From: Acidimicrobiia bacterium
GTDB lineage: Bacteria > Actinomycetota > Acidimicrobiia > Spongiisociales > ZC4RG35
NCBI GenBank assembly: GCA_040510135.1
Contig: JBEVJN010000061.1
Coordinates: 18,469-82,468 of the forward strand
Direction of reading: 5' to 3'
DNA length: 64,000 nucleotides
Shown: one piece after another, positions 23,160-50,300 of the stretch
Position numbering within the stretch: the stretch's first letter is position 1
Layout: every line of letters starts with the position of its first letter
The notes under the pieces: generated by a model
The model's database searches: none
What the model saw: the letters and a program-made list of their open reading frames with translations, nothing else
What the model was told of the DNA's origin: nothing
Program-made: the position numbers and the translations under genes

Positions 23160-26100
23160 TCAGCTGCAGCCGGTGGTGTCCCCGCAGGTGAGGCAGACGT
23201 AGCAACTCCCGTTACGGATCGTCATGTGACCGCAGTTGGAGCAGACCGGAGCGTCACCCATGTTCTCCCTGAGGGCCGAGTCGACCATGGCTGCCGATCC
23301 GGCGAGGACGGTCTCGGTCGCCGTGGACCCCCCTCCGGCCGTTCGGGCCACCTCCCCCAACGCCGCTTCGCTCCTGGGCGTGGAGACGGTCGGCCCATCG
23401 AGGAATGTGACTGCCGCCTTCACGGCCTCGACGTCGTCTTCGGCGACGGCGTCGGTGAGGTCGAGTTGGATCCCGGCTTCGACCGCCATTCCGGCGGGCG
23501 GCTCGGGGAGCTGCATGTCGCGATCCGGCGGGACCTGGGCGAGCTCGTCACGCTCCAGGTACTCCACACCGAGGGCTCGGAACACGTAGTCCACGATCGA
23601 GTTGGCCATCTTGATGTTCGGATGGCCTTCCACCATGCCTCTCGGCTCGAACGTCTGGAAGGTGAAGGTGTCGACGAACTCCTCGAGCGGGACCCCGTAC
23701 TGGAGCCCCTTGGAGACGGCAATGGCGAAGCAGGAAAGGATCCCCTTCAGCGTCGCTCCCTCCTTGGCCAGGTCGATGAAGATCTCGCCCAGGGTCCCGT
23801 CGTCGTATTCGCCGGTGCGGAGGAAGACTTTGTGCCCGCCGATCCTCGCTTCCTGGTTGTACCCGTTGCGACGGGCCGGGAGCAGGAACCGGGGCGGCTT
23901 CATCCCCTGGTGGTAGGCCTGCGTCGGTGAGATCCCGGCGGGCAGGTTCCCCCAGTGGATTGCCTTCTCGGCCTCGACCGCCGCCGTAAGCGCCGGCGTC
24001 TCGTCCTCGCTCTGCTCACCCTCGTCGGAGGTCGAGTTGAGCGGCTGGGCCGCCTTGGACCCATCCCGGTAGAGGGCCATCGCCTTGAGACCCCACTCCC
24101 ACGACATCCGGTACGACTCCTCGATGTCCTCGACGGTGATCTCGTGGGGCATGTTGATCGTCTTGCTGATCGCTCCCGAGATGAAGGGCTGGGCGGCCGC
24201 CATCATCTTGATGTGCCCGTAGTGGTGGATGAACCGGGTGCCGTACTTTCCGTTCTTGTTGGCTGTGTCGAAGACGGCGAGATGCTCATCGGCAATATGC
24301 GGAGCGCCCTCGATCGTCTGCCGGCCACAGATGTGGTCGTTCGCCTCGCTGATCTCAGCCGAGGTGAACCCCAGCGCCTTGAGCAGGTTGAACTCCCAGC
24401 CGGTGTACTCGTCGACACCGAAGCCAAGACGCTGCAAAGTGCTCTCACCGAAGGTGAAGACGTTGAAGGCGTGCTTCAGCTCGAACACCGCAGGCAAGGC
24501 CTTCTCCAACTTGGCGAGGTCCTCGTCGTCGAAGCCCTTGCCCATGAGCGTCTCACGGTTGATGTGGGGTGCCTCGTCGATCGAGCTGGTGCCGACGATG
24601 TACTCGACCACATCCGTGATCTGGCCCTCTTCGTAGGCGAGATGCCTCAATGCCGGGGCCACCGACTGATTGGCGATCTTGAAGTAACCGCCTCCGGCCA
24701 GCTTCTTGAACTTGACCAAGGCGAAGTCGGGCTCCACTCCGGTGGTGTCACAGTCCATCAAGAGGCCGATGGTGCCGGTGGGAGCGATCACGCTGGACTG
24801 GGCGTTGCGGTAACCGTGCTGCTCGCCCTGCTCAAGCGCCAGGTCCCACGACGAGCGGGCGGCTGCGAGGAAGTCGGCCGGGCACAGATCGGGATCGATC
24901 GCCATGACCTTGTGACTGACGCCGTCGTAGTCGCTATCGCCATAGGCGGCGCGGCGATGGTTCCGGATCACACGCAGCATCGCCTCCCGGTTCTCGGCGA
25001 AACGGGGGAAGGGACCGACCACAGCGGCGATCTCTGCCGACGTGGCGTAGGAGTGCCCGGTGAGGATGGCCGTCAACGCGCCACTGATGGCGCGACCCTC
25101 CTCGGAGTCATAGGCGATGCCCTGACGCATCAGGAGCGATCCGAGATTGGCATAGCCGAGGCCGAGAGTCCGGTAGTCGTAGGAGCCCTGGGCGATGTCT
25201 CGTGACGGGAAATGGGCCATGGCCACCGAGATCTCTAGCACGATGGTCCAGAGCCGGACGGCGTGCTGGTAGGCCTCGATATCGAACACGCCGGTCTCGT
25301 CGTCATGGAACCTGACCAGGTTTATCGATGCCAGGTTGCAAGCAGTGTCGTCGAGGAACATGTACTCCGAGCAGGGGTTTGAGGCTCGGATCCGGCCGCC
25401 GGCCGGCGAGGTGTGCCACTCGTTGACCGTGGTGTCGAATTGGAGACCGGGGTCGGCGCAGGCCCAGGCCGCCTCGGCGATCCGGTCCCAGAGGTCGCGG
25501 GCCTTGAGGGTCTTGCGGACCGAGCCGTCGGTCCGGTTGATCAAGTCCCAGTCGCCATCCTCGAGGACGGTCTGGATGAAGTCGTTGGTGACCCGAACCG
25601 AGTTGTTCGAGTTCTGGCCGGAGACCGTCGCGTAGGCGTCGCCGTTGAAGTCGGCGGGCAGGCCACCGTGGTTGATCAGGACCCGGGCCTTGTCCTCTTC
25701 GACCTTCTTCCAATCGATGAATCTCTCGACGTCCGGATGGTCGACGTCGAGGATGACCATCTTGGCCGCCCGTCTCGTCGTCCCTCCCGACTTGATCGCG
25801 CCGGCAGCGCGGTCGCCGATCTTGAGGAAGGACATGACACCGGATGACTTGCCACCCCCGGAGAGCCGTTCGTTCTCGGCCCTGATCTGGGAGAAGTTGG
25901 ATCCGGCACCCGAGCCGAACTTGAAGATGCGGGCCTCTCTGACCCAGAGGTCCATGATCCCACCCGGATTGACCAGGTCGTCTCTGACGCTGAGGATGAA
26001 ACAGGCATGCGGGGCGGGCCGGCTGTAGGAGTCGGGGGAGGATTCGAGCTTGCCGGTGGCACCGTCGACATACCAGAAGCCCTGGGAGGGGCCGGTCAGG

Positions 26101-26561
26101 CCGTAGGCCCAGTTGAGCCCGGTGTTGAACCACTGCGGAGAGTTGGGCGCGGCCATCTGCCTCGCCAGCATGTACTTGAGCTCGTCCTCGAAGGCGACGG
26201 CATCCTCGCTGGTGGCGAAGTAGCCCTCCTTCTCGCCCCAGTGCCGCCAGGTTCCGGCGAGCCGGCTGAACACTTGCTTGGCCGACTTCTCCGGGCCCAG
26301 CTCCGGCTGCCCGGTCTCGTCCACAACCTGATTGCCATCCGGGTCGAACTGGGGGACACCGGCCTTGCGGAAGTATTTGGACACCATGATGTCCGAGGCC
26401 ACCTGGCTCCAACCAGCCGGGATCTCCGCATCCGTCATCTCGAACACGGTCGAGCCATCCGGGTTGGTGATCCGCGAGTCGCGCCGGGTCCATTCGATCT
26501 TGTCGTATGGGTCCTTGCCGGTCTCGGTGAAGCGACGGGTGATCCGCAGGCCTTTGCTCAT
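23160..26561 (-). CDS. nrdJ: adenosylcobalamin-dependent ribonucleoside-diphosphate/triphosphate reductase (class II RNR)
   Basis: About 1133 aa starting MSKGLRITRRFTETGKDPYDKIEW, with GAGGAGG 7 nt upstream of the ATG at 26561. Active-site region SNPCSEY, and a C-terminal zinc ribbon CSNCGHMTIRNGSCYVCLTCG. Confidence 0.95.
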   Translation of the reverse strand: MSKGLRITRRFTETGKDPYDKIEWTRRDSRITNPDGSTVFEMTDAEIPAGWSQVASDIMVSKYFRKAGVPQFDPDGNQVVDETGQPELGPEKSAKQVFSRLAGTWRHWGEKEGYFATSEDAVAFEDELKYMLARQMAAPNSPQWFNTGLNWAYGLTGPSQGFWYVDGATGKLESSPDSYSRPAPHACFILSVRDDLVNPGGIMDLWVREARIFKFGSGAGSNFSQIRAENERLSGGGKSSGVMSFLKIGDRAAGAIKSGGTTRRAAKMVILDVDHPDVERFIDWKKVEEDKARVLINHGGLPADFNGDAYATVSGQNSNNSVRVTNDFIQTVLEDGDWDLINRTDGSVRKTLKARDLWDRIAEAAWACADPGLQFDTTVNEWHTSPAGGRIRASNPCSEYMFLDDTACNLASINLVRFHDDETGVFDIEAYQHAVRLWTIVLEISVAMAHFPSRDIAQGSYDYRTLGLGYANLGSLLMRQGIAYDSEEGRAISGALTAILTGHSYATSAEIAAVVGPFPRFAENREAMLRVIRNHRRAAYGDSDYDGVSHKVMAIDPDLCPADFLAAARSSWDLALEQGEQHGYRNAQSSVIAPTGTIGLLMDCDTTGVEPDFALVKFKKLAGGGYFKIANQSVAPALRHLAYEEGQITDVVEYIVGTSSIDEAPHINRETLMGKGFDDEDLAKLEKALPAVFELKHAFNVFTFGESTLQRLGFGVDEYTGWEFNLLKALGFTSAEISEANDHICGRQTIEGAPHIADEHLAVFDTANKNGKYGTRFIHHYGHIKMMAAAQPFISGAISKTINMPHEITVEDIEESYRMSWEWGLKAMALYRDGSKAAQPLNSTSDEGEQSEDETPALTAAVEAEKAIHWGNLPAGISPTQAYHQGMKPPRFLLPARRNGYNQEARIGGHKVFLRTGEYDDGTLGEIFIDLAKEGATLKGILSCFAIAVSKGLQYGVPLEEFVDTFTFQTFEPRGMVEGHPNIKMANSIVDYVFRALGVEYLERDELAQVPPDRDMQLPEPPAGMAVEAGIQLDLTDAVAEDDVEAVKAAVTFLDGPTVSTPRSEAALGEVARTAGGGSTATETVLAGSAAMVDSALRENMGDAPVCSNCGHMTIRNGSCYVCLTCGDTTGCS

Positions 26562-26643
26562 GAATGTGCCTCCTCGCACAGGGTGCGCCCCGGCCAGATT
26601 ACGGGGCGATGTCCGATTGCCAAAGCGTCGATTCTCAACTCAA

Positions 26644-27852: not shown

Positions 27853-28629
27853 ATGGAATTTGTTTCTTTCAACGTGTCTGAGCCCGATGTCCTGATCGCT
27901 ACCGCGATTCACAACGGGCACGATCTCAGGGCGAGTCTCGCCGACCTCCCTGCCATCGATGACGCGACGCGTCTGCGGGAGGAGGATCCGCACACGGGCG
28001 CCATCGCCTCCCGTTTCGCCAACAGCGTGGTGGTCAATCGCTCCCGTTTCGAGGTGGATCTCAACCGGGAGCGGGACGAAGCGGTCTACACCGACCCCGA
28101 ATCCGCCTGGGGCCTCGAGGTGTGGCGGCGCGATCTAACCGAGGTGGAGCTGGCGGCTTCGCTGGCCCTCTACGACCGCTTCTATATCGACCTCTCCTCG
28201 AGGCTCGACCGGTTAGTTGCAGACCATGGAGGGTTCGTCCTCTACGACATCCACTCGTACAACCATCGGCGGCTGGGTCCCGACGCCGACCCCGAGCCCG
28301 CCGAGGGCAGCCCGGTCGTCAACCTGGGGACGGGGTCCCTGCCCGAGAAATGGAAGCCGGTGGCGGATGCGTTCACGGAGAGTCTCCGATCCAACACGTT
28401 CGATGGTGTCCGTCTCGATGTGCGGGAGAACGTCCGCTTCGAGGGCCGAGCTCTGGCCGGCTGGGTCCATGAGAACTACGGCGAGCTCGGATGCGCCCTG
28501 GCCATAGAGGTGAAAAAGGTGTTCATGGACGAGTGGACGGGGGAGGTGGACCCAAAGCGGGTGGCGCAGCTTGGAGACGCCCTGATCGCGTCCGGGCCTG
28601 ACGTGCGGCGAGCCTGGGAAATGGCATGA
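27853..28629 (+). CDS. N-formylglutamate amidohydrolase (FGase)-family protein
   Basis: 258-aa ORF with AIHNGH...REEDPHTG...VVNRSRFEVDLNR...YDIHSYNHRR, characteristic of the FGase fold. Confidence 0.8.
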   Translation: MEFVSFNVSEPDVLIATAIHNGHDLRASLADLPAIDDATRLREEDPHTGAIASRFANSVVVNRSRFEVDLNRERDEAVYTDPESAWGLEVWRRDLTEVELAASLALYDRFYIDLSSRLDRLVADHGGFVLYDIHSYNHRRLGPDADPEPAEGSPVVNLGTGSLPEKWKPVADAFTESLRSNTFDGVRLDVRENVRFEGRALAGWVHENYGELGCALAIEVKKVFMDEWTGEVDPKRVAQLGDALIASGPDVRRAWEMA

Positions 28630-29780
28630 GCGTCGGGGAGATCGACCTGGTGATTGACCGCCGTCTCAGCGAGATCTGCGGTCTGCTCCCCATGCTCCAA
28701 TTGCTCACACCGACCAATGCGCCGGACCAGAGGCGAGCCTTCCTCGAGGGAGACATCGAGGAACCGGAGTTCACCTACAGGGATCTTCCCGATCTGGACG
28801 GCCTGACCGATGATCTGGGCGCGATCAATCCAGAGGAAGCCACAGACCCGGTGCTGATTCACATGATCCGGGGCTTGCACCGGGAGCTGGAACGTCGCAT
28901 CGAGTTGCTGGCGACGAGGAACACGGACCAGTTCCTCCTCGCTGCCATCGAGCAATACGGGCATGTCGAGACGCCGCTGTTGGATCTGGCCCATCGGGTG
29001 TTAGAGGAGGTCCCGCCGGGCCCAGCCGCAGATGTGTATGTCGATGCTCATGATCTGGCCAGGAGGGCCAACGTCGAGCTCGATCACTATCGCCGGCGCT
29101 TCCCGGAGCTGTCGACGCTGGTCCATGTCAGCGAAACGGTGGCCGGGGTGATGGTGGAGAACGGAGACCTGTTCATCGGTGTCGACACCTCGATCGCCGG
29201 CGACCGGGTGGAGCAATTGCTCCACCACGAGATCGGAATCCATGTGGTCACTTACATCAATGGGAGCGCACAGCCGATTCGCATGCTCTCGCTCGGCCTC
29301 TCCGGGTACGAGGAGACCCAGGAGGCCCTTGGGGTTCTTGCCGAGCATCTCAGCGGAGGTCTTCGCCCGAAGCGGCTGCGGGCTTTCGCGCTGCGAGTCG
29401 TTGCCGCACACTCGGTCAGCGGGCGGGCCACCTTCAGACAGACCTACGACACGTTGATCGATCTCGGCTCGGGACGTAATCGGGCATTCACCACGACGAT
29501 GCGCGCCCATCGGTCCGGCGGCATGACCAAAGACGCCCTGTATCTCGGCGGGCTGACCAGGCTCGTGACCTACCTCCAGGAGGGTGGCCGGCTCGATCCG
29601 CTGCTGGTGGGGAAGATAGGCTTGGCCGACGAGCCGCTGGTGTCCGATCTCCTCGAGAGAGGCGTCTTGGTGGAGCCGCCGCTCAGACCTCGATTCCTGG
29701 AGTCGAGAGATGCGCTCGATCGACTCGCCAGGATCCAGGATGGCGCCGGGATCCTGGAGCTGGGAGGTGTCGCCGCATGA
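28626..29780 (+). CDS. DUF1704 / QEGLA-motif protein (predicted HExxH metallo-carboxypeptidase-like)
   Basis: ATGA overlap with the FGase gene. HHEIGIH zinc motif followed by GYEETQEALGVLAEHLSGGL, a QEGLA-type motif. Confidence 0.75.
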   Translation: MSVGEIDLVIDRRLSEICGLLPMLQLLTPTNAPDQRRAFLEGDIEEPEFTYRDLPDLDGLTDDLGAINPEEATDPVLIHMIRGLHRELERRIELLATRNTDQFLLAAIEQYGHVETPLLDLAHRVLEEVPPGPAADVYVDAHDLARRANVELDHYRRRFPELSTLVHVSETVAGVMVENGDLFIGVDTSIAGDRVEQLLHHEIGIHVVTYINGSAQPIRMLSLGLSGYEETQEALGVLAEHLSGGLRPKRLRAFALRVVAAHSVSGRATFRQTYDTLIDLGSGRNRAFTTTMRAHRSGGMTKDALYLGGLTRLVTYLQEGGRLDPLLVGKIGLADEPLVSDLLERGVLVEPPLRPRFLESRDALDRLARIQDGAGILELGGVAA

Positions 29781-30823
29781 AGCTCGGTCTGGTCGTCAAC
29801 GACGTGACCACGGAGAAGCCGGAATACAGCACCACCCGGCTCGCTCTGGCTGCGCAGAAACGGGGGCACGAAGTCTGGCTCATGGGGGTTGGCGATCTGG
29901 CGCACACCTCGTCCGGGGAGGTGACGGCGCGAGCGCGCGGCCCGCGGGACAAATCGTATCGCTCGCTGAAGAGCTTTCTCGTGGATGTCCAGAGCGAAGA
30001 CGTGGACCCCGAGCTGATCACAGTCGACGAGCTCGATGTCCTCATGCTTCGCAATGACCCCGCTGAGGACGCCACCGACCGACCCTGGGCGCAGGCCTCG
30101 GGGGTCCTCTTCGGTCAGCTTGCTGCCGCGGCAGGAGTGGTAGTGGTGAACGACCCCGTTCACCTCGCCGATGCGATCAACAAGACCTACTTTCAGCACT
30201 TCCCCGAGGAGATCCGACCGCGGACCCTCATCTCCCGAACGGTCGGGGACATCAAGGACTTCGTCGACGTTCTCGGCGGGCGGGCCGTGCTCAAACCGCT
30301 CCAGGGGTCCGGTGGCCAGAGCGTGTTCGTGATCGCCGGGAAGAAGGGCCAGAACGTCAATCAGATCATCGAGACCATCACCCGGGACGGCTATGTGGTG
30401 GTCCAGGAATTCCTCGCGGATGCCGAGAGAGGTGATGTTCGCGTATTCGTCATGAACGGGAAGCCGCTCGAGGTGGATGGCAAGGTGGCTGCCTTCCGCC
30501 GGGTCAACGAGGGCGACGACATCCGCTCCAACATGCATGTGGGGGGGAAGGCACAGAAGGTGAAGATCACAGAGGAGATGCTCCATGTGGTCGACCTGGC
30601 ACGCCCCAAGCTCATCGAAGACGGCATGTTTCTCGTTGGGCTCGACATCGTCGGCCCCAAGATGATGGAGGCCAATGTCTTCAGCCCCGGGGGACTGGGA
30701 AGCGCCAGCGGGCTGCACGAGGTCGACTTTCCCGGCGCTGTTGTCGATGCCCTGGAGAGAAAGGTTCAGATCCGGGCGACTTATGGGCGGTCCCTGCCCA
30801 ATGCGTTACTCGCCACCATGTAA
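29777..30823 (+). CDS. ATP-grasp ligase, prokaryotic glutathione-synthetase (GshB)-like
   Basis: ATGA overlap with the upstream gene. N-domain MLRNDP motif. ATP-grasp region AVLKPLQGSGGQSVFVI...VVQEFL...DVRVFVMNG...RSNMHVGG...GLDIVGPKMMEANVFSPGG. Confidence 0.8.
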   Translation: MKLGLVVNDVTTEKPEYSTTRLALAAQKRGHEVWLMGVGDLAHTSSGEVTARARGPRDKSYRSLKSFLVDVQSEDVDPELITVDELDVLMLRNDPAEDATDRPWAQASGVLFGQLAAAAGVVVVNDPVHLADAINKTYFQHFPEEIRPRTLISRTVGDIKDFVDVLGGRAVLKPLQGSGGQSVFVIAGKKGQNVNQIIETITRDGYVVVQEFLADAERGDVRVFVMNGKPLEVDGKVAAFRRVNEGDDIRSNMHVGGKAQKVKITEEMLHVVDLARPKLIEDGMFLVGLDIVGPKMMEANVFSPGGLGSASGLHEVDFPGAVVDALERKVQIRATYGRSLPNALLATM

Positions 30824-30824
30824 G

Positions 30825-30852
30825 GGGCAGGGACCCGGGCGGGCCCCTGCCC
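30825..30852. terminator. GC-rich hairpin between convergent genes
   Basis: GGGCAGGG (30825-30832) pairs with CCCTGCCC (30845-30852) around a 12-nt loop. It starts 2 nt after the + strand stop and lies 9 nt before the minus-strand stop. No clear U-tract. Confidence 0.4.
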
Positions 30853-30860
30853 AAACCTGT

Positions 30861-31052
30861 TCAGCGCTGTGTATCGGCCCGGCCCAATGAACCGATGCCG
30901 ACCGCCAATCCGAGCAGGACGAGCGCGACCGGCCCTACATATCGGAGGTCTCCGATCCTGAGTGTCCAGACATCGAGAGCCTCCAATACGAACACGATCG
31001 CGACCATCGAGTAGACCACTCCCGCGAACAGAGTCCCTTTATGCAGTCTCAT
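30861..31052 (-). CDS. small two-TM membrane protein (63 aa)
   Basis: ATG at 31052 overlaps the upstream stop (ATGA). MRLHKGTLFAGVVYSMVAIVFVLEALDVW...YVGPVALVLLGLAVGIGSL. Confidence 0.5.
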   Translation of the reverse strand: MRLHKGTLFAGVVYSMVAIVFVLEALDVWTLRIGDLRYVGPVALVLLGLAVGIGSLGRADTQR

Positions 31053-31699
31053 CTCTCCACCTCCATGTTCCCGGTCGCGATATCGAGGTCGAGTGTCAGC
31101 TTCACGTCGGCGGCCCCGAACCCCTCGCTCGTGTAGGTACGACTGACCGAGAGACCCTCGCTGACTTCGCCGAGAAGGTCGATCTGACCGGCTCCCACCG
31201 ACGCGCTCACGTCGACGGGGACATCGGATGGCAGCACGACCGTCAGGTCCCCGGCACCTATCGTCACGTCGACAGCCGCCGATTCGGTCATTGTCAGCTC
31301 GCTGAGGTCCAGAGTGAGCCCACCCACGCCGACGTCGTATGTGGCGGCCAGGTCGGCCTGGTCGGTGACGAGGATGCTCCGGTCTCCGATGCCACTGCGA
31401 AACGCGTTCGGGGGTGCTGTCGCCACCGCCAGAACGGCGATGGTGACGAAGACCCCGGCCACGACGAGTCCCGGATGCGGGCCATTCCAAGCTCCAAAGA
31501 TCAGCCCGAGGCCGATGACGGCAAGGACTGCGGGCAGCACGATGGCCGCCTCGAGGGCGACGGCACCCACGACGTCCAGCAACCAGAGGCCGCCGACGAC
31601 CACGAGGAGAGCCCCGATGACGATCGAACCGTACGGGCCAGAGCCTCGTCGAGGGATGGTTTCAGGCTCGCGACGTTCCAGTGTCTCAGTCGTGCTCAT
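31049..31699 (-). CDS. LiaF-like (DUF2154, cell-wall-active antibiotic response) membrane protein
   Basis: N-terminal TM bundle, then a beta-rich repeat region GVGGLTLDLSEL...VTIGAGDLTVVLPSDVPVDVSASVGAGQIDLLG typical of the LiaF C-terminal domain. Confidence 0.7.
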   Translation of the reverse strand: MSTTETLERREPETIPRRGSGPYGSIVIGALLVVVGGLWLLDVVGAVALEAAIVLPAVLAVIGLGLIFGAWNGPHPGLVVAGVFVTIAVLAVATAPPNAFRSGIGDRSILVTDQADLAATYDVGVGGLTLDLSELTMTESAAVDVTIGAGDLTVVLPSDVPVDVSASVGAGQIDLLGEVSEGLSVSRTYTSEGFGAADVKLTLDLDIATGNMEVER

Positions 31700-32111
31700 G
31701 GCGACTCCCTAGATAGAGCAGGCCGGAGCCTGCGGCGATCACCGCCATCGGCCATATCACCCGATCGAACCAGGGCACCAGTGTGTTGACCAGGAGCATC
31801 AGGCCAATACCAACGAGGGCAATACCCACCATCATCGGCCCCTGTGTTCCGATGTCCGCTGGATTCCCCGTTTGGGGTTCCCCCGGCTCTGCCTGGGGGA
31901 TGACCAGCCACGCGATCAGGTAGATCAGGATGCCGGCTCCACCCGCCAGTGTGACGAGCACGAAGGCCAGCCTGAACCAGACCGGGTCCGTGTTTAAGTA
32001 ATGGCCCAGGCCACCGCACACACCGCCGAGCATCCGATCGTCGATGCTCCGGCGTAGGTATGTCCGTGCGGAATCCGCCACGGCGGGGGGGCCAGCGTCG
32101 AGCTGCGTCAT
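31686..32111 (-). CDS. PspC-domain membrane protein
   Basis: AAGGAGG lies 6 nt upstream of the ATG at 32111. LRRSIDDRMLGGVCGGLGHYLNTDPVWFRLAFVLVTLAGGAGILIYLIAWLVIP is a canonical PspC domain. Confidence 0.8.
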   Translation of the reverse strand: MTQLDAGPPAVADSARTYLRRSIDDRMLGGVCGGLGHYLNTDPVWFRLAFVLVTLAGGAGILIYLIAWLVIPQAEPGEPQTGNPADIGTQGPMMVGIALVGIGLMLLVNTLVPWFDRVIWPMAVIAAGSGLLYLGSRHEHD

Positions 32112-32212
32112 GCGCAACCTCCTTTCCATCGCACGATGCGTGGAAAAGGCGGCGTCGGAACAGTGCCGAAAGACCCAACTCCGTCGATCAGCAGCCCTGT
32201 CTAAGTAGTCGG

Positions 32213-35200
32213 CTACGCGGGCACCGGTGCCGCGTCCAGGACGAGGGCGGCCGCGTCGAAGGGGTTGAGCTGGCGGCCATTGTGGCGGGCCGCCTTGAGC
32301 ACTGGGTCGTCGAGCGAATCGGCCATCGCGGAGAGAGCGTCGAACAGCCACTTGATCAGTGGCCACGGGTGGAGCCCGATCCGCTCCCGGACCTCCTCGG
32401 CCGCCCCGAGAGCGATCATGCCGAGCTCGGTCTGCCCCTCCGTAAACGAGAGTGAGGCTGCGGCTTCGAGGGCGTAACAGAGACCTTCCCGATAGTTCAT
32501 GCCGCGGAACACATCGAAGGAACGGCTGAGGGCATCCCTCGCCTCGGTGAGTCGGCCCGAGGAGATGTAGGTGAATCCGATCTGGGCCTCGGCTAGCCCG
32601 ATCAGAGCTGCATTGCCCAGTTCGAACCCGAGATTCCTGGTTTCGAGCTGGTATCTCTCAGCCGCTTCCACGTCGCCATTGGACCCGGCGAGGATGCCCA
32701 GCGCGATCAGCGCATATCCCTCACCCCACCGGTCTCCAAACCCGCGGAACCTGGCCAACGACAGCTCCAGACTCTCTCTCACCTCGCCAGGATCCTCGCC
32801 GTACGCGGGCAGCAGGAGGGCCGACAGGAAATCGGTCCAGTTGTGACAGTCGATGTCACCGTTGGCCTCGACGATGGTCATCGCCCGATCGATCGACGCT
32901 TTTGATTCCTCGTACAAGCCCATCTCGTATTGGATGCCGCCACGCAGCCACCAATATCGGCCGGAGAGCACATCATCGAGGTCTTGGGGGGAGCGAACCG
33001 CAGCGAGGTAGCGGGCGCCGTCCTTGAGGTGGTTTCCGATCCATAGGTAGACCCACATGCCGAAGGACATCTTGACGAGGGAGGCGTCGTCTGCCTTCTT
33101 CATCAGCCACTCGGCGGCGACGTCGAAGTTGTTCCATTCGGCGGCGAATCTCTCGACGACCGACGCCTGCTTGGTCCCGCGAAGATCCTCCAGGGCGGCA
33201 TCGGCGACGCCTACGTAGTAATCGGCGTGCCGATCCTTCATCCATTCGTACTCGCCCGCCTCATGGAGATGACGCAGGCCGAATTCCCTCATCGGTGCCA
33301 GCATCCTGAGCCGGCCCTCGCCGCCCTGGGCAGGGAGGACCAGACTGTTCTCGACGAGCACCATCAGCTGGTCGACGGCATCTCCCTCCTCGACGGCCAC
33401 CTCCTGGGCAGATTCCACCGTGAAGCCTCCCTGGAACACGCACAACCTGCAGAAAAGGGCTTGCTCCTCCCGGTTGAGCAGTTGGTAGCTCCAGTCGATT
33501 GCGGCGTCGAGGGTCCTCTGGCGGCTAGGGACGTCGGCAGCCCCGGACCCGAGAGCGTCGAGCGACCTGGTGAGCCGGTCCGACAGCGCCCCCGGGCTGA
33601 GCATTCGAAGACGGGCAGCGGCCAATTCGATGGCCAGAGGCAAGCCATCGACCTTTCGAACGATCGACGCCACCGGCGAGGCGTTCTCCTCGTTGATCGA
33701 GAATCCCGGGATCACCGCAATGGCGCGGTCGATGAAGAGACGAACGGCATCGGAGGCCGAGATCGAGTCGGGCCGGTCCGACCCGGTGGGGGGCAGTCCG
33801 AGCGGCTCGAGTGTGTATTCGTACTCGCTCATGATCCGGAGCGGGACGCGGCTGGTGGCGAGGACCTTGAGCCCGGGACTCCGACCAAGGAGGTCGGCGA
33901 CCGACGGTCCGCCCGCGGCCACATGCTCGAAGTTGTCGATGACGAGTAGCACCTGTTGGTCCTGGAACTCGCTGGAGAGAGCGTCGATGGCGTCACCTTC
34001 GATGGGGATGCCTGCCGCGTCGCCGATGGCGAGCAGCACCTGGCTCGGGTCGGTGATAGCGGCCAGGTTCACGAAATAGACACCGTCGGGGAAATGCGCT
34101 GAGCAATCCTCGGCGACCGACAGGGCGAGGCGGGTCTTCCCGATCCCACCCGGGCCCACGATCGTGGTCAGACGAACATTGGGGCGTCCCATCATCTCGG
34201 TCAGCTCAGCCAGCTCCTTGTCCCGCCCGACCAGGACGTTCGGCGACTTGGGAAGTCGAACCCGTGTTATCGACCGTGCCCGGGGGGACGGAAACTCGGC
34301 TCGGAGGCCTGGGGCCAGCACCTGAAAGAGCTTCTCGGCGCGGGAGAGGCCCTTGAGGGCGAAGGAGCCCAGCTCCTTGATCTCCCATCCTTCTCTCTCG
34401 GTCTGCCCCTCGACCAGTTCGCGCACCGGGGCGGAAACAACGATCTGGCCTCCGTGGGCGGAGGAGGCCACCCGGGAAGCCCGGTGCACGTCGAGTCCGA
34501 CATATCCACCGGACCCCATGCGTGCCGTGCCGGTATGCAACCCGAGGCGGGCTTGCACCGCGACCGACTCGGGCCAGAGTCGATCGTCGAGTGCCTTCTG
34601 TATCTCGACCGTGGCGCTGACGGCCTGGAAGGCATCTTGGAAGACGCTGAACAGCCGCTCTCCTTCCAGATCGACAATCGTCCCTTCATGACGCAGGGTG
34701 GCGTCGGCGACTACCTGGTGGTAGCCGGTGAGGACATCGGCGTACCGAGCTCCTAACTGCTCGACAAGGGTGGTCGACCCGGCGAGATCGCCGAACATGA
34801 AAGTGAGGGTGCCTCCCGGCAAGGCGTCGGCGTGGGGCCCGACGGTGGCGAATCTCTCCGACATAAGTGCCGCGAGGTCCTCGACCATCATTTCCGCGAG
34901 CTCCCCAGGGGACTCGAAGGTCCGCACGGCCGATCTTGCCTCGGCGCGAACGCGATCCAAGAGGTCGGTCAGGCCTTGCTCCCGATCGGGGGCAGGCTCT
35001 TTGACATAGACGAGGCCGGGGAGGCCTGATCCCGCCTCGTACTCCCGCTCTAGGTCGGATTCCCAGCCATACGACTGCCAGTAGATGCCAACGAATATGT
35101 CCGAGTCAGCGATGGTTGGCTCGTCATGCCCTTCTCGGTCGCCCAGGTCCATCCCGGCGGGATCGAGCCGCAAGGTCTTGATAGCGGATTTGGCGGCCTC

Positions 35201-35302
35201 TCGCTCTGATTTGAGCTCGCCGAGCGTGGACGACACAAAGACCCTCAATCTCGGGTCGTGATTGGTCGGCTCGAAGCCGCTCCCCTCCCTGGTCGCATCC
35301 AC
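32213..35302 (-). CDS. multidomain STAND signalling protein: DUF4062-like N-domain, class III nucleotidyl cyclase domain, NB-ARC/AAA ATPase, TPR array
   Basis: GTG start at 35302, 1029 aa. The N-domain reads RVFVSSTLGELKSEREAAKSAIKTL...SDIFVGIYWQSYGW. The cyclase domain reads TLTFMFGDLAGSTTL...RLGLHTGTA...GLDVHRASRVASSAHGGQIVVS. Walker A is IVGPGGIGKTRLAL and Walker B is VLLVIDNFEHV. A winged-helix-like SRQRTLDAAIDWSYQLLNREEQALFCRLCVFQGGFT follows, then TPR-like repeats to the C-terminus. Confidence 0.85.
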   Translation of the reverse strand: MDATREGSGFEPTNHDPRLRVFVSSTLGELKSEREAAKSAIKTLRLDPAGMDLGDREGHDEPTIADSDIFVGIYWQSYGWESDLEREYEAGSGLPGLVYVKEPAPDREQGLTDLLDRVRAEARSAVRTFESPGELAEMMVEDLAALMSERFATVGPHADALPGGTLTFMFGDLAGSTTLVEQLGARYADVLTGYHQVVADATLRHEGTIVDLEGERLFSVFQDAFQAVSATVEIQKALDDRLWPESVAVQARLGLHTGTARMGSGGYVGLDVHRASRVASSAHGGQIVVSAPVRELVEGQTEREGWEIKELGSFALKGLSRAEKLFQVLAPGLRAEFPSPRARSITRVRLPKSPNVLVGRDKELAELTEMMGRPNVRLTTIVGPGGIGKTRLALSVAEDCSAHFPDGVYFVNLAAITDPSQVLLAIGDAAGIPIEGDAIDALSSEFQDQQVLLVIDNFEHVAAGGPSVADLLGRSPGLKVLATSRVPLRIMSEYEYTLEPLGLPPTGSDRPDSISASDAVRLFIDRAIAVIPGFSINEENASPVASIVRKVDGLPLAIELAAARLRMLSPGALSDRLTRSLDALGSGAADVPSRQRTLDAAIDWSYQLLNREEQALFCRLCVFQGGFTVESAQEVAVEEGDAVDQLMVLVENSLVLPAQGGEGRLRMLAPMREFGLRHLHEAGEYEWMKDRHADYYVGVADAALEDLRGTKQASVVERFAAEWNNFDVAAEWLMKKADDASLVKMSFGMWVYLWIGNHLKDGARYLAAVRSPQDLDDVLSGRYWWLRGGIQYEMGLYEESKASIDRAMTIVEANGDIDCHNWTDFLSALLLPAYGEDPGEVRESLELSLARFRGFGDRWGEGYALIALGILAGSNGDVEAAERYQLETRNLGFELGNAALIGLAEAQIGFTYISSGRLTEARDALSRSFDVFRGMNYREGLCYALEAAASLSFTEGQTELGMIALGAAEEVRERIGLHPWPLIKWLFDALSAMADSLDDPVLKAARHNGRQLNPFDAAALVLDAAPVPA

Positions 35303-35345
35303 GAGCTACAACGGTAGTGAGTCGGCCGCCGCTACCGGCCATGGT

Positions 35346-35987
35346 TCAGCGGTCGAGATGCTCCCAGACGTCAGTGCTCGGGTGGGGGGAGATGTCCCAG
35401 CGCGGCAAGAAGTACTGGACGAGCGGGCCGATGGCCAAGGCAAAGATGATGGTGCCGACGCCGAAGGTGCCGCCCAGGATCGCGCCGAGGGTGAGGACCG
35501 ATATCTCGATGACCGCACGGGTGAGTCTGATCGACGGCCCCCGGCGCGCGATGCCGGTCATCAGCCCATCGCGCGGGCCCGGCCCCAGGTTTGCGCCGAT
35601 ATAGAGGCCCGACGCGATCCCGATCAGGACGACCCCACCGAGAAGCATCGACCACGCCACGCCAGTGACCCCGGCCGCCGGGATGACAGCCGCGGTGAGG
35701 TCGATGATGACCCCGATGATGATTGCGTTGAGGAGGGTGCCCAGGCCATAGGGCTGTCGCAATGGCAGCCAGAGGAGGAGCACGAATACCGAGACGATGA
35801 TCGACCAGAGGCCGACCGTGAGCCCGAATCGCCGAGCCAGACCCTGGTGGAGGACGTCCCACGGCGGCACCCCGAGGCCGGATTGCAGCATCAGCCCGAT
35901 GCCGACGCCGAACAGCACCAGTCCGATGATCAGTTGGATGATGCGACGAGTGAGTCGCTCGCCGGCGACAGGGATCAAGTACTTCAA
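35346..35987 (-). CDS. YczE/YitT-like polytopic membrane protein
   Basis: Hydrophobic ORF with RRIIQLIIGLVLFGVGIGLMLQSGLGVPPWDVL...GPGPRDGLMTG. There is no ATG; the best start is the TTG at 35987, directly after the upstream stop at 35989-35991. Confidence 0.6.
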   Translation of the reverse strand: MKYLIPVAGERLTRRIIQLIIGLVLFGVGIGLMLQSGLGVPPWDVLHQGLARRFGLTVGLWSIIVSVFVLLLWLPLRQPYGLGTLLNAIIIGVIIDLTAAVIPAAGVTGVAWSMLLGGVVLIGIASGLYIGANLGPGPRDGLMTGIARRGPSIRLTRAVIEISVLTLGAILGGTFGVGTIIFALAIGPLVQYFLPRWDISPHPSTDVWEHLDR

Positions 35988-35988
35988 G

Positions 35989-36840
35989 TCATCGACCTCC
36001 GAGCGCCTCCGCGATCCGGGGAGGGAGGTCGATGCTCGTCGGTGGCATGAAGCTGACCAGCACGTGATCCGCCCCCAGCTCCCTGTAGGCAGCCACGAGG
36101 TCGGCCGTCTCGTCTGGGTCGCCCGGGTACCGGAACTGGACTGAGACCTCGATCTCGGAGCGGTCTCTCCCGATCTCCTCGCACGCCTCTTCGAAACGTC
36201 GGAGGGCCGGGACGAACAGATCCAGCTCGGAGGTGAAGTCCGGGTAGTTCCATTGATCGGCCCAGCGGGCGGCCAACGGGATGGTCCGGCGCGGGCCGGA
36301 GCCACCGATCACGAAAGGCGGTCTGGGCTTTTGCACCGGCTTCGGCTCGAAACGGGCCGAGCTGATGGCTCGATGCTTCCCTTTGAAGTCGAACACCTCC
36401 TCGGTCATGAGCCCGTGCAGGATGTGGAAGGTCTCGTCGAGCATCTCGAAACGCTGTCGGAGAGGGGGCAGATCGATGCCGAATGCTTCGTGCTCACGTT
36501 CGTGCCAACCAGTCCCCACTCCGAGCTCGAGCCTGCCTCGAGACATGTGATCGAGCGTCACCGCCTGCTTGGCCAGCACCGCCGGATGGCGAAAGGTGTT
36601 CGCGGTCACCATCGTCCCGAATCTGATCCGGTTGGTCACTGCGGCGAGACCACCAAAGAGGGACCAGCCGTCCATGATCGGCCGGCTTTCCTCGGCCCGC
36701 GGCGGGTAGAGGTGGTCGTTGAGCCAGACCACGTCCCAGAACCCGCCTCGATCGGCCTCCACCCACATGTCACGGAGTTGGGGCCAGTCCTGATCCTGAG
36801 CCCAGACCTTGAAGGAATGCCGGAACGGCCTTTCGGTCAT
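35989..36840 (-). CDS. LLM-class flavin/F420-dependent oxidoreductase
   Basis: 283-aa ORF with NDHLYP...GTMVTANTFRHPAVLAKQAVTLDHMSRGRLELGVGTGW. ATGA overlap with the upstream peptidase gene. Confidence 0.85.
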   Translation of the reverse strand: MTERPFRHSFKVWAQDQDWPQLRDMWVEADRGGFWDVVWLNDHLYPPRAEESRPIMDGWSLFGGLAAVTNRIRFGTMVTANTFRHPAVLAKQAVTLDHMSRGRLELGVGTGWHEREHEAFGIDLPPLRQRFEMLDETFHILHGLMTEEVFDFKGKHRAISSARFEPKPVQKPRPPFVIGGSGPRRTIPLAARWADQWNYPDFTSELDLFVPALRRFEEACEEIGRDRSEIEVSVQFRYPGDPDETADLVAAYRELGADHVLVSFMPPTSIDLPPRIAEALGGR

Positions 36841-38747
36841 GAGTCAGCGGGCTCGACCACCATCGGCACGTCGGGCAGATCGTCATCGGGAGAGAAACCC
36901 AACACTTTCCCGTAGAAAGCGAGCTCGGACTCCAGGCTGTGGATGATGTTCTCCGCCTTGCGGAACCCGTGATCTTCACCCTCGTAGGTGAGATGTGCGT
37001 GCGGGATCCCGTTCGCAGACAAGGCGGCGGAGATCGCCTCGGCCTGTTCCGGCGGGACCACCTTGTCCTCCAGACCCTGGAGCAGGATGACCGGGACTGT
37101 GATCTGGTCCGCCGAATTGAGGGGTGATCTGCGTTTCATCTCCTCGCGGTCGGTGCCGACCAACCCGTCGAGATAGCGCGACTCGAACTTGTGGGTGTGG
37201 TCGACGAGGAGCCCGAGGTCGGCCACCCCGAAGTAGGAGCCCCCAGCGCTGAACGCGTCCCCGAAGGCGAGGGATGCCAGCGTGGTGTAGCCGCCGGCAC
37301 TGCCTCCGGTGATGATCAGTCGTTCGCCGTCGACCTCACCCTCGTCGGCCAGATAGCGAGCCGCCGCGAGGCAGTCTTCGACATCGACGATGCCCCAACT
37401 GTCACGGAGGAGGTTCCGGAACCTGCGCCCGTAACCGGTCGAACCGCGGTAATTGACGTCGACCAAGCCGAAGCCCCTGGTGGTCCAGTACAGGAACGCC
37501 GGTCTGAGCCACGGGAAGACGTGCGACGTCGGGCCCCCGTGGACCTTCATGATCAGGGGAGGCTTCTCCCCTCCGGGCCCCTCGTAACCGGGATTGGTAG
37601 GTGGGTAATAGACGCCGTGGCCGACCTCGCCATCAGCGGTGGGGAAAGTGATGATGCGTGCTGCGGGGATGTAACCGGGCTCGACCGGCACGGGGTTGGA
37701 CCGGACCACACTGAGGGTGCCCGTGTCGACCTCGAGCTCATGGATCGAGTTCGGCGTCGTAGGTCCGTGCCCGATGAACCAAGCCCGGGAGCCGCCGTCA
37801 GTGACCAGAAACTCGAGACCGGTCAGGTGGTTGGGGAGACGTCTGAGGCTGCCATCCCGGTCGATTACGCCGAGATGGTTGACTCCGTCCTCCCAGAAGG
37901 CGGCAAGGATCCGTCCTTCAGAGAGGAATCCAAAGCTGGTGAGGCCGAAAATCCACGCCGGTACCCCAAAATCGGCCTCCATGGCGAGTATCGGGCTCGT
38001 CACCCCGCCCTCGAAGCGATGCAGGTTCCACCACCCGTTCCGGTCGGAGGCGAAAACGATGCTCCCGTCCGGTGCCCACTCCGGTTGGAAGATGGACTCA
38101 TCGAGACCACCTGCGATCTCTTCGATGTCGACCAGTCCGTCCGCGGTGATGGTCCCGGTCTTGAGGAGAGTCCCGTCCCAGGGCATGTTGGGGTGATCCC
38201 ATTCCAGCCAGGCGAGATGCCGGCCATCACCCGATGGCCGGGGGAACGCGTAGAAGTCCCTACCGGTGGCCAGGACCGTCACATCCTGGGTGGCGGGGTC
38301 GATCCTGACGATCTCGTTCGCCGGCTCCCTGTCACCATGACTCTCCCGGACAGCGACGATGTCCCCATTGGGCAGAAAGCGGCTGTCGGCGTAACGCAGG
38401 GCGCCTGGCCGGGTGGGCTCGGGCGTGATCGGCCCCTGTCCGAGGAGACACAGCCTTTGATCGGAGAACTCGGAGTAGGCCACCTTCCCGTCGGCGACGG
38501 TGAAGGCACCACCTCCGTATTCGTGGACCGTGGTCCGGACATAGATCGGTGGCGGGGTCACGTCGCTGAGCTGACCGGCTTGGTCACGACGCACCAGGAC
38601 CTGGCGGCCCCCTTCGGAGGGACGCCCTTCCAGCCAGTACAGATCATCGCCGTCGATCGTGATCTGCCCGAAAAGGACCACGCCTCCGACCGTGTCGGCG
38701 GCCGAGACTGGCGACGGCCAGGCGCCATAGGGTCGGGTCTGAGCCAT
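36837..38747 (-). CDS. S9-family serine peptidase (prolyl oligopeptidase/acylaminoacyl-peptidase-like)
   Basis: N-terminal beta-propeller region, then a C-terminal hydrolase with nucleophile ITGGSAGGYT and a late EGEDHGF histidine motif. Confidence 0.9.
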   Translation of the reverse strand: MAQTRPYGAWPSPVSAADTVGGVVLFGQITIDGDDLYWLEGRPSEGGRQVLVRRDQAGQLSDVTPPPIYVRTTVHEYGGGAFTVADGKVAYSEFSDQRLCLLGQGPITPEPTRPGALRYADSRFLPNGDIVAVRESHGDREPANEIVRIDPATQDVTVLATGRDFYAFPRPSGDGRHLAWLEWDHPNMPWDGTLLKTGTITADGLVDIEEIAGGLDESIFQPEWAPDGSIVFASDRNGWWNLHRFEGGVTSPILAMEADFGVPAWIFGLTSFGFLSEGRILAAFWEDGVNHLGVIDRDGSLRRLPNHLTGLEFLVTDGGSRAWFIGHGPTTPNSIHELEVDTGTLSVVRSNPVPVEPGYIPAARIITFPTADGEVGHGVYYPPTNPGYEGPGGEKPPLIMKVHGGPTSHVFPWLRPAFLYWTTRGFGLVDVNYRGSTGYGRRFRNLLRDSWGIVDVEDCLAAARYLADEGEVDGERLIITGGSAGGYTTLASLAFGDAFSAGGSYFGVADLGLLVDHTHKFESRYLDGLVGTDREEMKRRSPLNSADQITVPVILLQGLEDKVVPPEQAEAISAALSANGIPHAHLTYEGEDHGFRKAENIIHSLESELAFYGKVLGFSPDDDLPDVPMVVEPADS

Positions 38748-49370: not shown

Positions 49371-50300
49371 GTGGGTCACTCGGGCGTTTTGCACTGCAGG
49401 CGAACCGGAGGTCACCACGTCCCGATCCGGTACGATCGTGCCTTGGCCAGCCTCCAGAAGAAGAACCTCGACAACCCGGACGAGCGGGTCCAATTCGACG
49501 GGCTCGAGGCCGACATCGTGCAGGTCGGAGAGACCTCGATATCGCGGAACGTGTTCCAACCGGGCGCTCATTGTGCCCTCGGCGGGCGCCGTCTGAGCGG
49601 CAACCATCGAGCGAAGGAGAGCTGCCAGGCGCACCACTCAGGTGTCGTCGTTCAGGGGCGGTTGCGGATCGAGATGGACGACGGCTCGGCCATGGACCTT
49701 GGGCCGAACGAGGTCTTCGACATACCTCCGGGCCACGACGGCTGGGTGGTGAGCGACGAGCCCTGGGTCGGCATCAACTGGTCCGGGGTCCGCACCTGGC
49801 TTCCCCAGGTCGAGTCCGGCGACCGGGTTCTCGCCACACTTCTCTTCACCGACATCGTGTCTTCCACCGAGACGGCAGTTCAGTTGGGGGACAGAGCGTG
49901 GCGTGACCTCCTGGGCCGGCACAATCAGGAGGTCAGGGATCAGCTCGATCGGTTTCGAGGACGGGAGGTCGGCACTACCGGAGACGGGTTCTTGGCAGTC
50001 TTCGACGGGGCGGCCAGAGCCATCCATGCAGCCCAAGCCATTCGTGACCGCGCCCGCGGCCTAGGTCTAGAGATCCGATCCGGGATCCACACCGGCGAGG
50101 TCGAGGTGGTCGGAGATGACGTCAGGGGAGTCGCGGTGCACGAAGCGGCCCGGATCGCTGCGGCGGCATCACCCGGCCAGATCCTTGTCTCGGCCACGAC
50201 ACACGACCTGGCTGCCGGCGGCGAGTTCACCTTCGAGGAGACACCGGGTCGAGAGCTAAAGGGCTTGGCCGGAGAGCGGATCCTGCACACGGTCGTGTAG
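49371..50300 (+). CDS. cupin-domain / class III adenylate-guanylate cyclase fusion
   Basis: The cupin-like half reads HHSGVVVQGRLRIEMDDGSAMDLGPNEVFDIPPGHDGWV. The cyclase half reads ATLLFTDIVSSTE...TTGDGFLAVF...RSGIHTGEV...GVAVHEAARI. The GTG start is uncertain. Confidence 0.8.
   Translation: MGHSGVLHCRRTGGHHVPIRYDRALASLQKKNLDNPDERVQFDGLEADIVQVGETSISRNVFQPGAHCALGGRRLSGNHRAKESCQAHHSGVVVQGRLRIEMDDGSAMDLGPNEVFDIPPGHDGWVVSDEPWVGINWSGVRTWLPQVESGDRVLATLLFTDIVSSTETAVQLGDRAWRDLLGRHNQEVRDQLDRFRGREVGTTGDGFLAVFDGAARAIHAAQAIRDRARGLGLEIRSGIHTGEVEVVGDDVRGVAVHEAARIAAAASPGQILVSATTHDLAAGGEFTFEETPGRELKGLAGERILHTVV

Follow-up and report, generated by a model that had tools for sequence, protein, structure and literature searches.

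The window analyzed here is a stretch of 64,000 nucleotides from an Acidimicrobiia bacterium (GenBank assembly GCA_040510135.1, contig JBEVJN010000061.1, positions 18,469 to 82,468 of the forward strand), and the subject of this work is one gene on its minus strand, hereafter the target, which encodes a protein of 1029 residues. It is a real gene with four modules in a single chain, namely a DUF4062 domain, a class III nucleotidyl cyclase, an AfsR/NB-ARC-like STAND NTPase that contains a NOD (nucleotide-binding oligomerization domain), and an array of tetratricopeptide repeats (TPR). Its GC content at third codon positions (GC3) is 0.80, typical of genes in this window of 65% GC, and more than 100 full-length homologs are found at 38-93% identity to it. 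The gene and its modules lie as follows.

32213..35302, minus strand: gene of the DUF4062-cyclase-NOD-TPR STAND protein, 1029 aa, with a GTG start at 35302 and a TAG stop at 32213-32215

34853..35257, minus strand: DUF4062/TIR-like domain, residues 16-150 (Pfam PF13271, family profile, AlphaFold2 (AF2) model)

34298..34822, minus strand: class III nucleotidyl cyclase domain, residues 161-335 (Pfam PF00211, phmmer, Foldseek)

33203..34255, minus strand: STAND NTPase (NOD with helical and winged-helix parts), residues 350-700 (AAA_16, AfsR profile match)

32243..33202, minus strand: TPR-like repeat sensor region, residues 701-1020 (sub-threshold Pfam TPR, PINS/LGN profile match)

Pfam matches of the target protein were judged by the cut-off of each model, and those above it are, from the N- to the C-terminus, DUF4062, Guanylate_cyc and AAA_16. 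The Pfam scan finds no LuxR/GerE and no other C-terminal DNA-binding domain, as a first-pass annotation made from the sequence had said of this protein. The four domains assigned by that annotation are upheld by Pfam, by structure matches and by a family profile, which was built from 15 diverse members and searched against the PDB, and every motif that it quoted is found in the translated open reading frame (ORF). The NCBIfam scan of the target gives a partial and far sub-threshold likeness to HaaT, AfsR and LipJ and nothing more. In the PADLOC scan the sole match is to PycC, weak and partial (E 8.6e-7, residues 167-246), and no Avs or other STAND model is matched.

The DUF4062 head is matched by PF13271 at residues 20-88 with 40.9 bits against a cut-off of 24.7, and the same model matches 11 of 11 diverse family N-termini, with a best E of 1.5e-20. 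DUF4062 is described as a TIR-like NAD+ glycohydrolase in two 2026 preprints (bioRxiv 10.64898/2026.05.01.722283 and 10.64898/2026.06.25.731849). In these preprints KpSwz, a Swarozyc protein, depletes NAD+ upon binding of a phage portal and requires E97, the human TEP1 protein has a NADase activity dependent on E1008, and Evangelion is a plasmid-borne DUF4062 defense family with a "catalytic E-Y region". The "effector-like" character proposed earlier for the module is therefore borne out by experiments on Swarozyc, Evangelion and TEP1, which show a TIR-like NADase. A profile of the family N-termini matches the solved DUF4062 domain of KpSwz at E 1.8e-4. The target has the catalytic-type motif S82-D-L-E85-R-E87-Y88 (ExE-Y), and in the solved E97A chain of KpSwz the mutated residue is A84, within S-F-T-E-K-A-F. 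The HMMER alignment places E85 of the target opposite KpSwz E97, and an ungapped alignment of the motifs, for which the N-cap Ser of helix C of the AF2 model served as anchor, places E87-Y88 opposite E97-F, so that by either alignment to KpSwz a Glu is present at the predicted catalytic position. E85 is invariant across the curated family alignments; of 102 members, 86 have Glu at position 87 and 15 have Asp.

AF2 models of the DUF4062 domain, which have predicted local distance difference test (pLDDT) values of 81-86 (81 for the target), show five beta-strands alternating with helices; this check of the fold is confined to the order of strands and helices along the chain. Foldseek searches with the isolated domain model are weakly informative (E about 1e-3, best TM-scores 0.60-0.63), and the best matches are the plant TIR domains of RPS4/RRS1, the N-glycosidase MilB and flavodoxins, with Ras proteins also present in this generic set. 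The KpSwz structures are not among these matches and were probably released after the library cut-off. Since the Foldseek result is marginal and KpSwz is absent from it, the fold is argued from the topology and from the sequence profile. With this fold and the conserved Glu, the target DUF4062 is predicted to be an NAD+ glycohydrolase. TIR-type NADases, including DUF4062, are activated through higher-order assembly (2026 DUF4062 literature).

The second head is matched by PF00211 (Guanylate_cyc) at residues 165-321 with 27.2 bits against a cut-off of 21.9. The closest solved relative by both sequence and structure is Ma1120, to which the target cyclase is 30% identical (phmmer E 2e-18; Foldseek E 1e-15, TMt 0.94), and the family profile retrieves it from the PDB at E 5e-32. 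The canonical class III positions were mapped through the alignment with Ma1120 onto 102 family members of 38-93% identity, with the following outcome in target numbering.

Position 172, metal 1: Asp in 100 of 102

Position 211, base-specifying Lys position: Asp in 95 of 102

Position 215, metal 2: always acidic, 65 members with Asp and 37 with Glu (the target among the latter)

Position 266, base-specifying Asp position: Gly in 85 of 102

Position 273, transition-state Asn: His in 102 of 102

Position 277, transition-state Arg: Arg in 102 of 102

Position 317, phosphate Lys: Lys in 90 and Arg in 11 of 102

R252, H256 and R277 are invariant or nearly so across the family, and the cyclase residues are under purifying selection over the whole range of 38-93% identity. 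The first-pass annotation had pointed to GE, in place of the usual GD, at the second metal-binding position. This Glu is real in the target (E215), but it is a subclade variant, since GD is found in 65 of the 102 members, and what sets the cyclase apart lies mainly elsewhere. As Asp and Glu alternate across the family, GE as a mark of an altered or dead cyclase was rejected. By this alignment the signature of the family cyclase is instead Asp/Gly/His (D211, G266, H273). In addition, position 213 in the motif D-x-E-G-D/E (residues 211-215, about 34658-34672) is always acidic, 91 of the 102 members having Glu and the other 11 Asp; Glu stands there in just 26 of 65 relatives without DUF4062, and the position makes a third conserved acidic residue of the active-site strand.

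The target does not have the canonical Lys/Asp pair that reads adenine, and has Asp211 and Gly266 instead. An acidic residue at 211 together with Gly266 makes canonical reading of ATP unlikely, and GTP or a pyrimidine NTP is possible; the cyclase would probably recognize its substrate in some way other than the canonical one, and the Asp/Gly/His signature is a candidate for a new substrate-specificity class. In PfPucC, which forms cGMP, a Glu (E118) located four residues ahead of the second metal Asp reads guanine. The KDA-to-EGY mutant of Ma1120 alters the same three positions, Lys211, Asp266 and residue 276 in target numbering. This mutant was reportedly designed with guanylyl-cyclase-type residues as its aim. 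Val-His at the site of the transition-state Asn is also found in Rv1900c, which was deposited as an adenylyl cyclase. In the 65 cyclase-NOD-TPR relatives without DUF4062 the base-specifying and transition-state positions are variable (Lys/Asp, Asp/Gly and others), and a relative from Mycobacterium asiaticum reads Gln/Asn/Asn at the specificity and transition-state positions. Class III cyclases are obligate dimers. A single target chain holds both the metal and the transition-state residues, as in homodimeric class III cyclases, and with this full catalytic set a homodimer would carry two sites.

The two heads stand on a NOD-TPR chassis, in which the NTPase motifs are the P-loop GPGGIGKT (383-390), the Walker B LLVIDNFE (452-459), TSR (483-485) and GLPLAIELAA (553-562), all invariant or nearly so in the family. 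AAA_16 matches residues 357-428 with 33.2 bits against a cut-off of 32.6, the NB-ARC model reaches 19.0 bits and stays under its cut-off of 23.5, and single TPR models are likewise under their cut-offs. Homologs of the target carry PF25872 (HTH_77). A search of the PDB with the single sequence of the NOD-TPR half gives no match, and the family profile is needed. Residues 352-942 of the profile match the NOD-ARC-TPR part of AfsR at E 1e-26, and the NTPase region matches the plant NLR proteins ADR2 (E 7e-9) and Roq1 (E 9e-6). The match to Apaf-1 is weak (E 3e-5), without any stretch that passes individually. In the C-terminal third the matches are to PINS/LGN, which are TPR proteins, with E values between 1e-10 and 1e-7. 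By these profile matches the domain named NB-ARC is better described as an AfsR/AP-ATPase-like STAND. Inside the orthologous clade the TPR and cyclase parts are equally conserved (72% each); between subfamilies the values range from 30% for the TPR, the module that diverges most, to 55% for DUF4062, which is conserved best.

The architecture, which had earlier been thought possibly undescribed, is uncharacterized, and a search of 5.8 billion proteins shows it to be recurrent, not a one-off. The best 120 clusters are 38-93% identical to the target, have PF13271, PF00211, AAA_16, HTH_77 and TPR in nearly all cases, and come from Acidimicrobiia, other Actinomycetota and metagenome-assembled genomes of Gaiellaceae. 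At 90% identity there are at least 100 full-length fusion clusters. The only names that the sources give to them are "predicted ATPase/class 3 adenylate cyclase" and "DUF4062 domain-containing protein". In a set of 1.84 billion representatives at 50% identity, both N-terminal domains are matched by about 30 clusters, and by about 7 others in part, and these roughly 37 clusters are from Actinomycetota only; the same set holds 1279 proteins at E<=1e-30, which are mostly cyclase-only. In the species genomes of GTDB, 599 stretches encode relatives, and most of them match from about residue 160 or about residue 340 on. The fusion is not found in 72,556 PLSDB plasmids, 50,697 GenBank phages or IMG/VR, collections in which mobile elements of Acidimicrobiia are poorly sampled.

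A frequent sister architecture, which emerged when metagenomes were scanned with the DUF4062 profile and then with domain HMMs, is DUF4062-NOD-TPR of about 870-900 residues without cyclase, and it is present in the cultured Geodermatophilus sabuli DSM 46844. The NOD parts of the four architectures (DUF4062 and cyclase, DUF4062 only, cyclase only, neither) are 43-50% identical, about equally distant from one another. As judged from these comparisons there is one NOD-TPR chassis with exchangeable N-terminal effector heads, of which the target family bears two; the existence of sister lineages with one head, with the other or with none makes each head an exchangeable effector. Two metagenome contigs (L123 and L151) each have two cyclase-less DUF4062-NOD-TPR genes in tandem on the same strand, and a third (L119) has two such genes on opposite strands, which suggests local expansion of paralogs, like that of NLR repertoires.

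The neighborhood of the target was compared in 13 distinct orthologs, which are 69-93% identical to it. The usual order of the cluster is the DUF6198 membrane protein, the target gene, PspC, the LiaF-like protein and a 63-aa ORF, and in the window the neighbors of the target are these.

35346..35990, minus strand: DUF6198/YitT-like membrane protein, about 214 aa, 44 nt upstream of the target, with a weak YitT_membrane match

31686..32111, minus strand: PspC-domain membrane protein, 141 aa, 101 nt downstream of the target (Pfam PspC, 84.8 bits)

31049..31699, minus strand: LiaF-like protein, 216 aa, whose start overlaps the end of PspC (Pfam LiaF-like_C)

30861..31052, minus strand: 63-aa ORF, in ATGA overlap with the stop codon of the LiaF-like gene

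The upstream gene is present in nearly all orthologs, and PF19700 (DUF6198) is annotated in the orthologous loci. The PspC gene has a sequence like a ribosome-binding site, GGAAAGGAGG, ahead of its ATG. The 63-aa ORF has no Pfam match, and is called as a gene at the same place in two other loci (L082 and L083). A GC-rich hairpin comes after it (about 30825-30855), and the PspC-LiaF unit probably ends with this ORF. The adjacency to PspC/LiaF genes noted earlier is real and is kept in most orthologs, since in 10 of the 13 the next genes downstream, on the same strand and about 23-115 bp away, are PspC-LiaF. A LiaF-TM/LiaF_C protein is also the next gene downstream of a 53%-identical member with an otherwise unrelated neighborhood, and with these two observations mere coincidence was rejected as an explanation of the linkage. 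A scan of 30600-37000 for promoters and terminators found nothing exceeding the shuffled expectation, and for this reason co-transcription with PspC is argued from spacing and strand. Housekeeping genes of the window include those for a class II ribonucleotide reductase, an alpha/beta hydrolase, FGase, MATCAP, a GSH-S-like ATP-grasp protein, a luciferase-like oxidoreductase and an S9 peptidase, and orthologous loci retain the flanking ones in synteny. In nine neighborhoods that were inspected there is no restriction, CRISPR, toxin or other defense gene.

A protein with a cyclic nucleotide-binding domain (CNBD) is not encoded in the stretch 20000-46000 of the window. At another locus (L086, 6804-7826, minus strand) a protein of 340 residues with a C-terminal domain that binds cyclic nucleoside monophosphates (cNMP) is encoded divergently from a DUF4062-cyclase-STAND gene 46% identical to the target, with an IS110 transposase nearby. 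This protein is a possible receptor of the cyclase product, in that subfamily only. A cNMP-binding partner as a feature of the family was rejected, because a jackhmmer search started from this neighbor finds such a partner only at this one DUF4062-fused locus and at some cyclase-only loci. The window also has a second, unrelated class III cyclase gene at 49371-50300 (plus strand), which encodes 309 residues with Guanylate_cyc at residues 155-300 (51 bits) and shares 32% identity with the target's cyclase domain, so the genome has other sources of cNMP.

Two further features of the surroundings are recorded here. At 27853-30823 (plus strand) lies a likely three-gene operon for an FGase-like amidohydrolase, a homolog of the tyrosine carboxypeptidase family MATCAP and a GSH-S/RimK-like ATP-grasp ligase, a set conserved beside the target in orthologs; in one of them (L081, 11099-13297) the MATCAP and ATP-grasp parts are fused in a protein of 732 residues. 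This composition suggests a system for ligation and removal of peptide tails. The class II (B12-dependent) ribonucleotide reductase at 23160-26579 (minus strand, 1139 aa) has no Pfam intein match in the window, and its ortholog in L083 (14840-19162) is longer than 1569 residues and has an intein with a LAGLIDADG endonuclease.

Taking these results together, we lean towards the reading that the target is a ligand-gated, oligomerization-activated STAND with two effectors, which is likelier to be a sensor of stress or dormancy than a mobile phage defense. A ligand would bind at the C-terminal TPR sensor and lift the autoinhibition of the AfsR/NB-ARC-like NTPase, allowing nucleotide exchange and oligomerization, and the oligomer would draw the N-terminal heads together. 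The cyclase domains could then pair head-to-tail, in the dimer needed for catalysis, and make a cyclic mononucleotide, and the DUF4062 TIR-like domains would assemble into an active NAD+ glycohydrolase. The protein would act as an intracellular stress sensor, possibly linked to the envelope, whose outputs would be second-messenger signaling and NAD+-dependent growth arrest. The target is a vertically inherited chromosomal gene of Acidimicrobiia, and this inheritance together with the cluster with PspC/LiaF makes a role as stress sensor the most likely one. The first-pass annotation had compared the protein with ligand-triggered immunity or stress sensors; its logic of N-terminal effectors, NOD switch and TPR sensor is retained, as is the stress half of the proposal, and the genomic context speaks against a mobile defense island.

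Several observations weigh against the stress-sensor reading. The characterized bacterial DUF4062 systems, Swarozyc and Evangelion, are anti-phage and deplete NAD+, and cNMP cyclases that are fused to STANDs fall into a predicted "immune clade 1" of a 2026 phylogeny. Among four human DUF4062-STAND proteins NADase activity in vitro is found in TEP1 only; NWD1, NWD2 and NPHP3 have DUF4062 and the activity was not seen. With Glu at metal site 2, His in place of Asn and a non-canonical pair of base-specifying residues, the cyclase could be weak in catalysis or use an unusual substrate. No conserved cNMP receptor was found near the family genes, a cNMP-binding neighbor is present at one DUF4062-fused locus only, and distant subfamilies have different neighbors: the cNMP-binding protein in L086, a SARP-AAA_16 regulator in L087, and cyclase-NB-ARC-TPR paralogs in L088. 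Three orthologs (L001, L081 and L102) keep the target gene without PspC-LiaF, and the loss in L081 is recent, as it is 93% identical to L090, which has PspC-LiaF. These three independent losses led us to reject an obligatory linkage to PspC, and the link could in part be inherited synteny.

Some of these points belong to a rival explanation, abortive infection of the Avs/NLR-like anti-phage type, in which the TPR would bind a phage protein and the resulting oligomer would deplete NAD+, with cNMP as alarm or amplifier. About 20% of bacterial DUF4062 genes sit in defense islands (2026 DUF4062 preprints), the paired DUF4062-NOD-TPR paralogs of L119, L123 and L151 resemble expanded NLR repertoires, and the TPR, where such a ligand would bind, is the module that diverges most between subfamilies. 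Inside the orthologous clade, however, this sensor is not fast-evolving, and the position and neighbors of the gene are kept among housekeeping genes in orthologs at 69-93% identity. The nine inspected neighborhoods are free of defense genes, no copy of the fusion was found in the plasmid, phage and viral collections, PADLOC gives only the weak partial PycC match, and the nearest relative of the NOD is AfsR, a STAND of the transcription-regulator type. We consider phage defense rather unlikely, yet a serious alternative in view of the anti-phage role of the characterized DUF4062 systems and of the "immune clade" assignment. It is still less probable that one or both heads are catalytically dead and serve as nucleotide-binding, regulatory or oligomerization modules, so that the protein would be a scaffold or regulator. 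The non-canonical active site (Glu at 215 and His at 273 where Asp and Asn are usual, and D211/G266 instead of Lys/Asp) would fit this explanation, as would the three human proteins without observed NADase activity, the inactive cNMP cyclase domains reported in the literature for other conflict-system fusions, and the degraded cyclase motifs of a few family members, for example the P0077- and P0088-type sequences. Yet D172, the acidic residue at 215, R277, K317, E85 and the acidic residue at 87 rank with the best-conserved columns of the family alignment at 38-93% identity, and dead domains usually lose exactly such catalytic-type residues. A Glu for an Asp at the metal site is a conservative replacement, Asp is retained by 64% of the family, and Rv1900c, a deposited adenylyl cyclase, shares the Val-His motif.

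A bolder form of the favored stress-sensor reading, which we regard as improbable, is that the two heads are coupled in cis on one STAND, so that a cNMP other than cAMP (in view of Asp211/Gly266, cGMP or a cyclic pyrimidine) gates or aids the TIR-like NADase. The protein would then be the cytoplasmic transducer of a PspC/LiaF sensor of membrane damage, a housekeeping switch for NAD+ depletion or dormancy that envelope stress would trigger, and not a phage defense. The PspC-LiaF cluster in this lineage has no adjacent two-component genes of the LiaS/LiaR type.

The modules and the logic of STAND proteins are already known, and databases list the family, which is uncharacterized, by generic names. 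In the running text of the literature consulted, we found no description of the DUF4062-cyclase-NOD-TPR combination, of the Asp/Gly/His signature or of the linkage to PspC/LiaF; the main text of both 2026 DUF4062 preprints does not mention a cyclase, and the text of the Nature 2026 survey of STAND proteins mentions neither DUF4062 nor a cyclase. General statements in the literature say that some DUF4062 proteins bear extra enzymatic domains and that cyclases are fused to STANDs (2026 phylogeny). It was not until 2026 that DUF4062 was shown to be a TIR-like NADase, and to date this concerns human TEP1 and anti-phage proteins that are small and mobile only. In the target family the domain and a cyclic-nucleotide synthase stand in tandem on a bacterial switch of NLR-like type, with a PspC/LiaF linkage. 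If both heads are active, one bacterial receptor would have two nucleotide-based outputs, NAD+ cleavage and cNMP synthesis. Such a case would also point to roles of TIR-like NADase STANDs outside defense, in stress response, dormancy or programmed death for example, which bears on the exchange of parts between immune NLR/TIR modules and housekeeping signaling.

Among the known systems, Swarozyc, Evangelion (Eva01) and TEP1 share with the target an N-terminal TIR-like DUF4062 with the SST...ER and ExE-aromatic motifs. The first two are short proteins, each encoded by a single gene and equipped with a small auxiliary domain, whereas the target has the order DUF4062-cyclase-NOD-TPR; Swarozyc is found in defense islands and Evangelion is enriched on resistance plasmids, while the target lies in a conserved chromosomal housekeeping context. 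TEP1, NWD1 and NWD2 also have DUF4062 N-terminal to a STAND NTPase and a repeat sensor, as in the target, but TEP1-like proteins have NACHT, WD40 and TROVE domains and no cyclase, and the target combines an NB-ARC-like NTPase and TPR with one. Of the features that mark Avs/AVAST systems, neither a match to an Avs model nor a defense-island context is found for the target. Pycsar and Pucsar, which are built of a PycC or PucC cyclase and an effector with CNBD-TIR or transmembrane parts, resemble the target in having a class III-type cyclase and a TIR-family NADase, and in PfPucC, as in the target, the residue four positions ahead of the second metal residue is acidic (E118 and D211). In these systems the TIR effector is a protein distinct from the cyclase, and a diffusible cNMP couples the two by way of the cNMP-binding domain, whereas the target has both heads in one STAND chain, no CNBD, and DUF4062 instead of a canonical TIR.

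Actinobacterial cyclase-ATPase(-TPR)-LuxR proteins, of the type of Rv0386, Rv1358 and Rv2488c of M. tuberculosis, have a cyclase N-terminal to an NB-ARC/AAA_16-type STAND, as the target does. The M. asiaticum relative mentioned above (L064), which is 34% identical to target residues 161-774, has the order cyclase-NB-ARC-GerE(LuxR) without DUF4062, with GerE at 59.9 bits, and this agrees with the first-pass comparison with mycobacterial proteins; its cyclase reads Gln/Asn/Asn, and that of the target, in which no C-terminal helix-turn-helix is matched, reads Asp/Gly/His. Ma1120, the minimal class III adenylyl cyclase of M. avium (PDB 4WP3 and others), is the best match of the target cyclase in sequence and structure, but it has Lys/Asp at the base positions, and the Asp/Gly of the target is nearer to the engineered KDA-to-EGY mutant. 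AfsR of Streptomyces, a SARP-NB-ARC-TPR protein (PDB 8K60 and 8JKE), is the closest solved relative of the NOD-ARC-TPR part; its output is the N-terminal SARP DNA-binding domain, and the target has two enzymatic heads instead.

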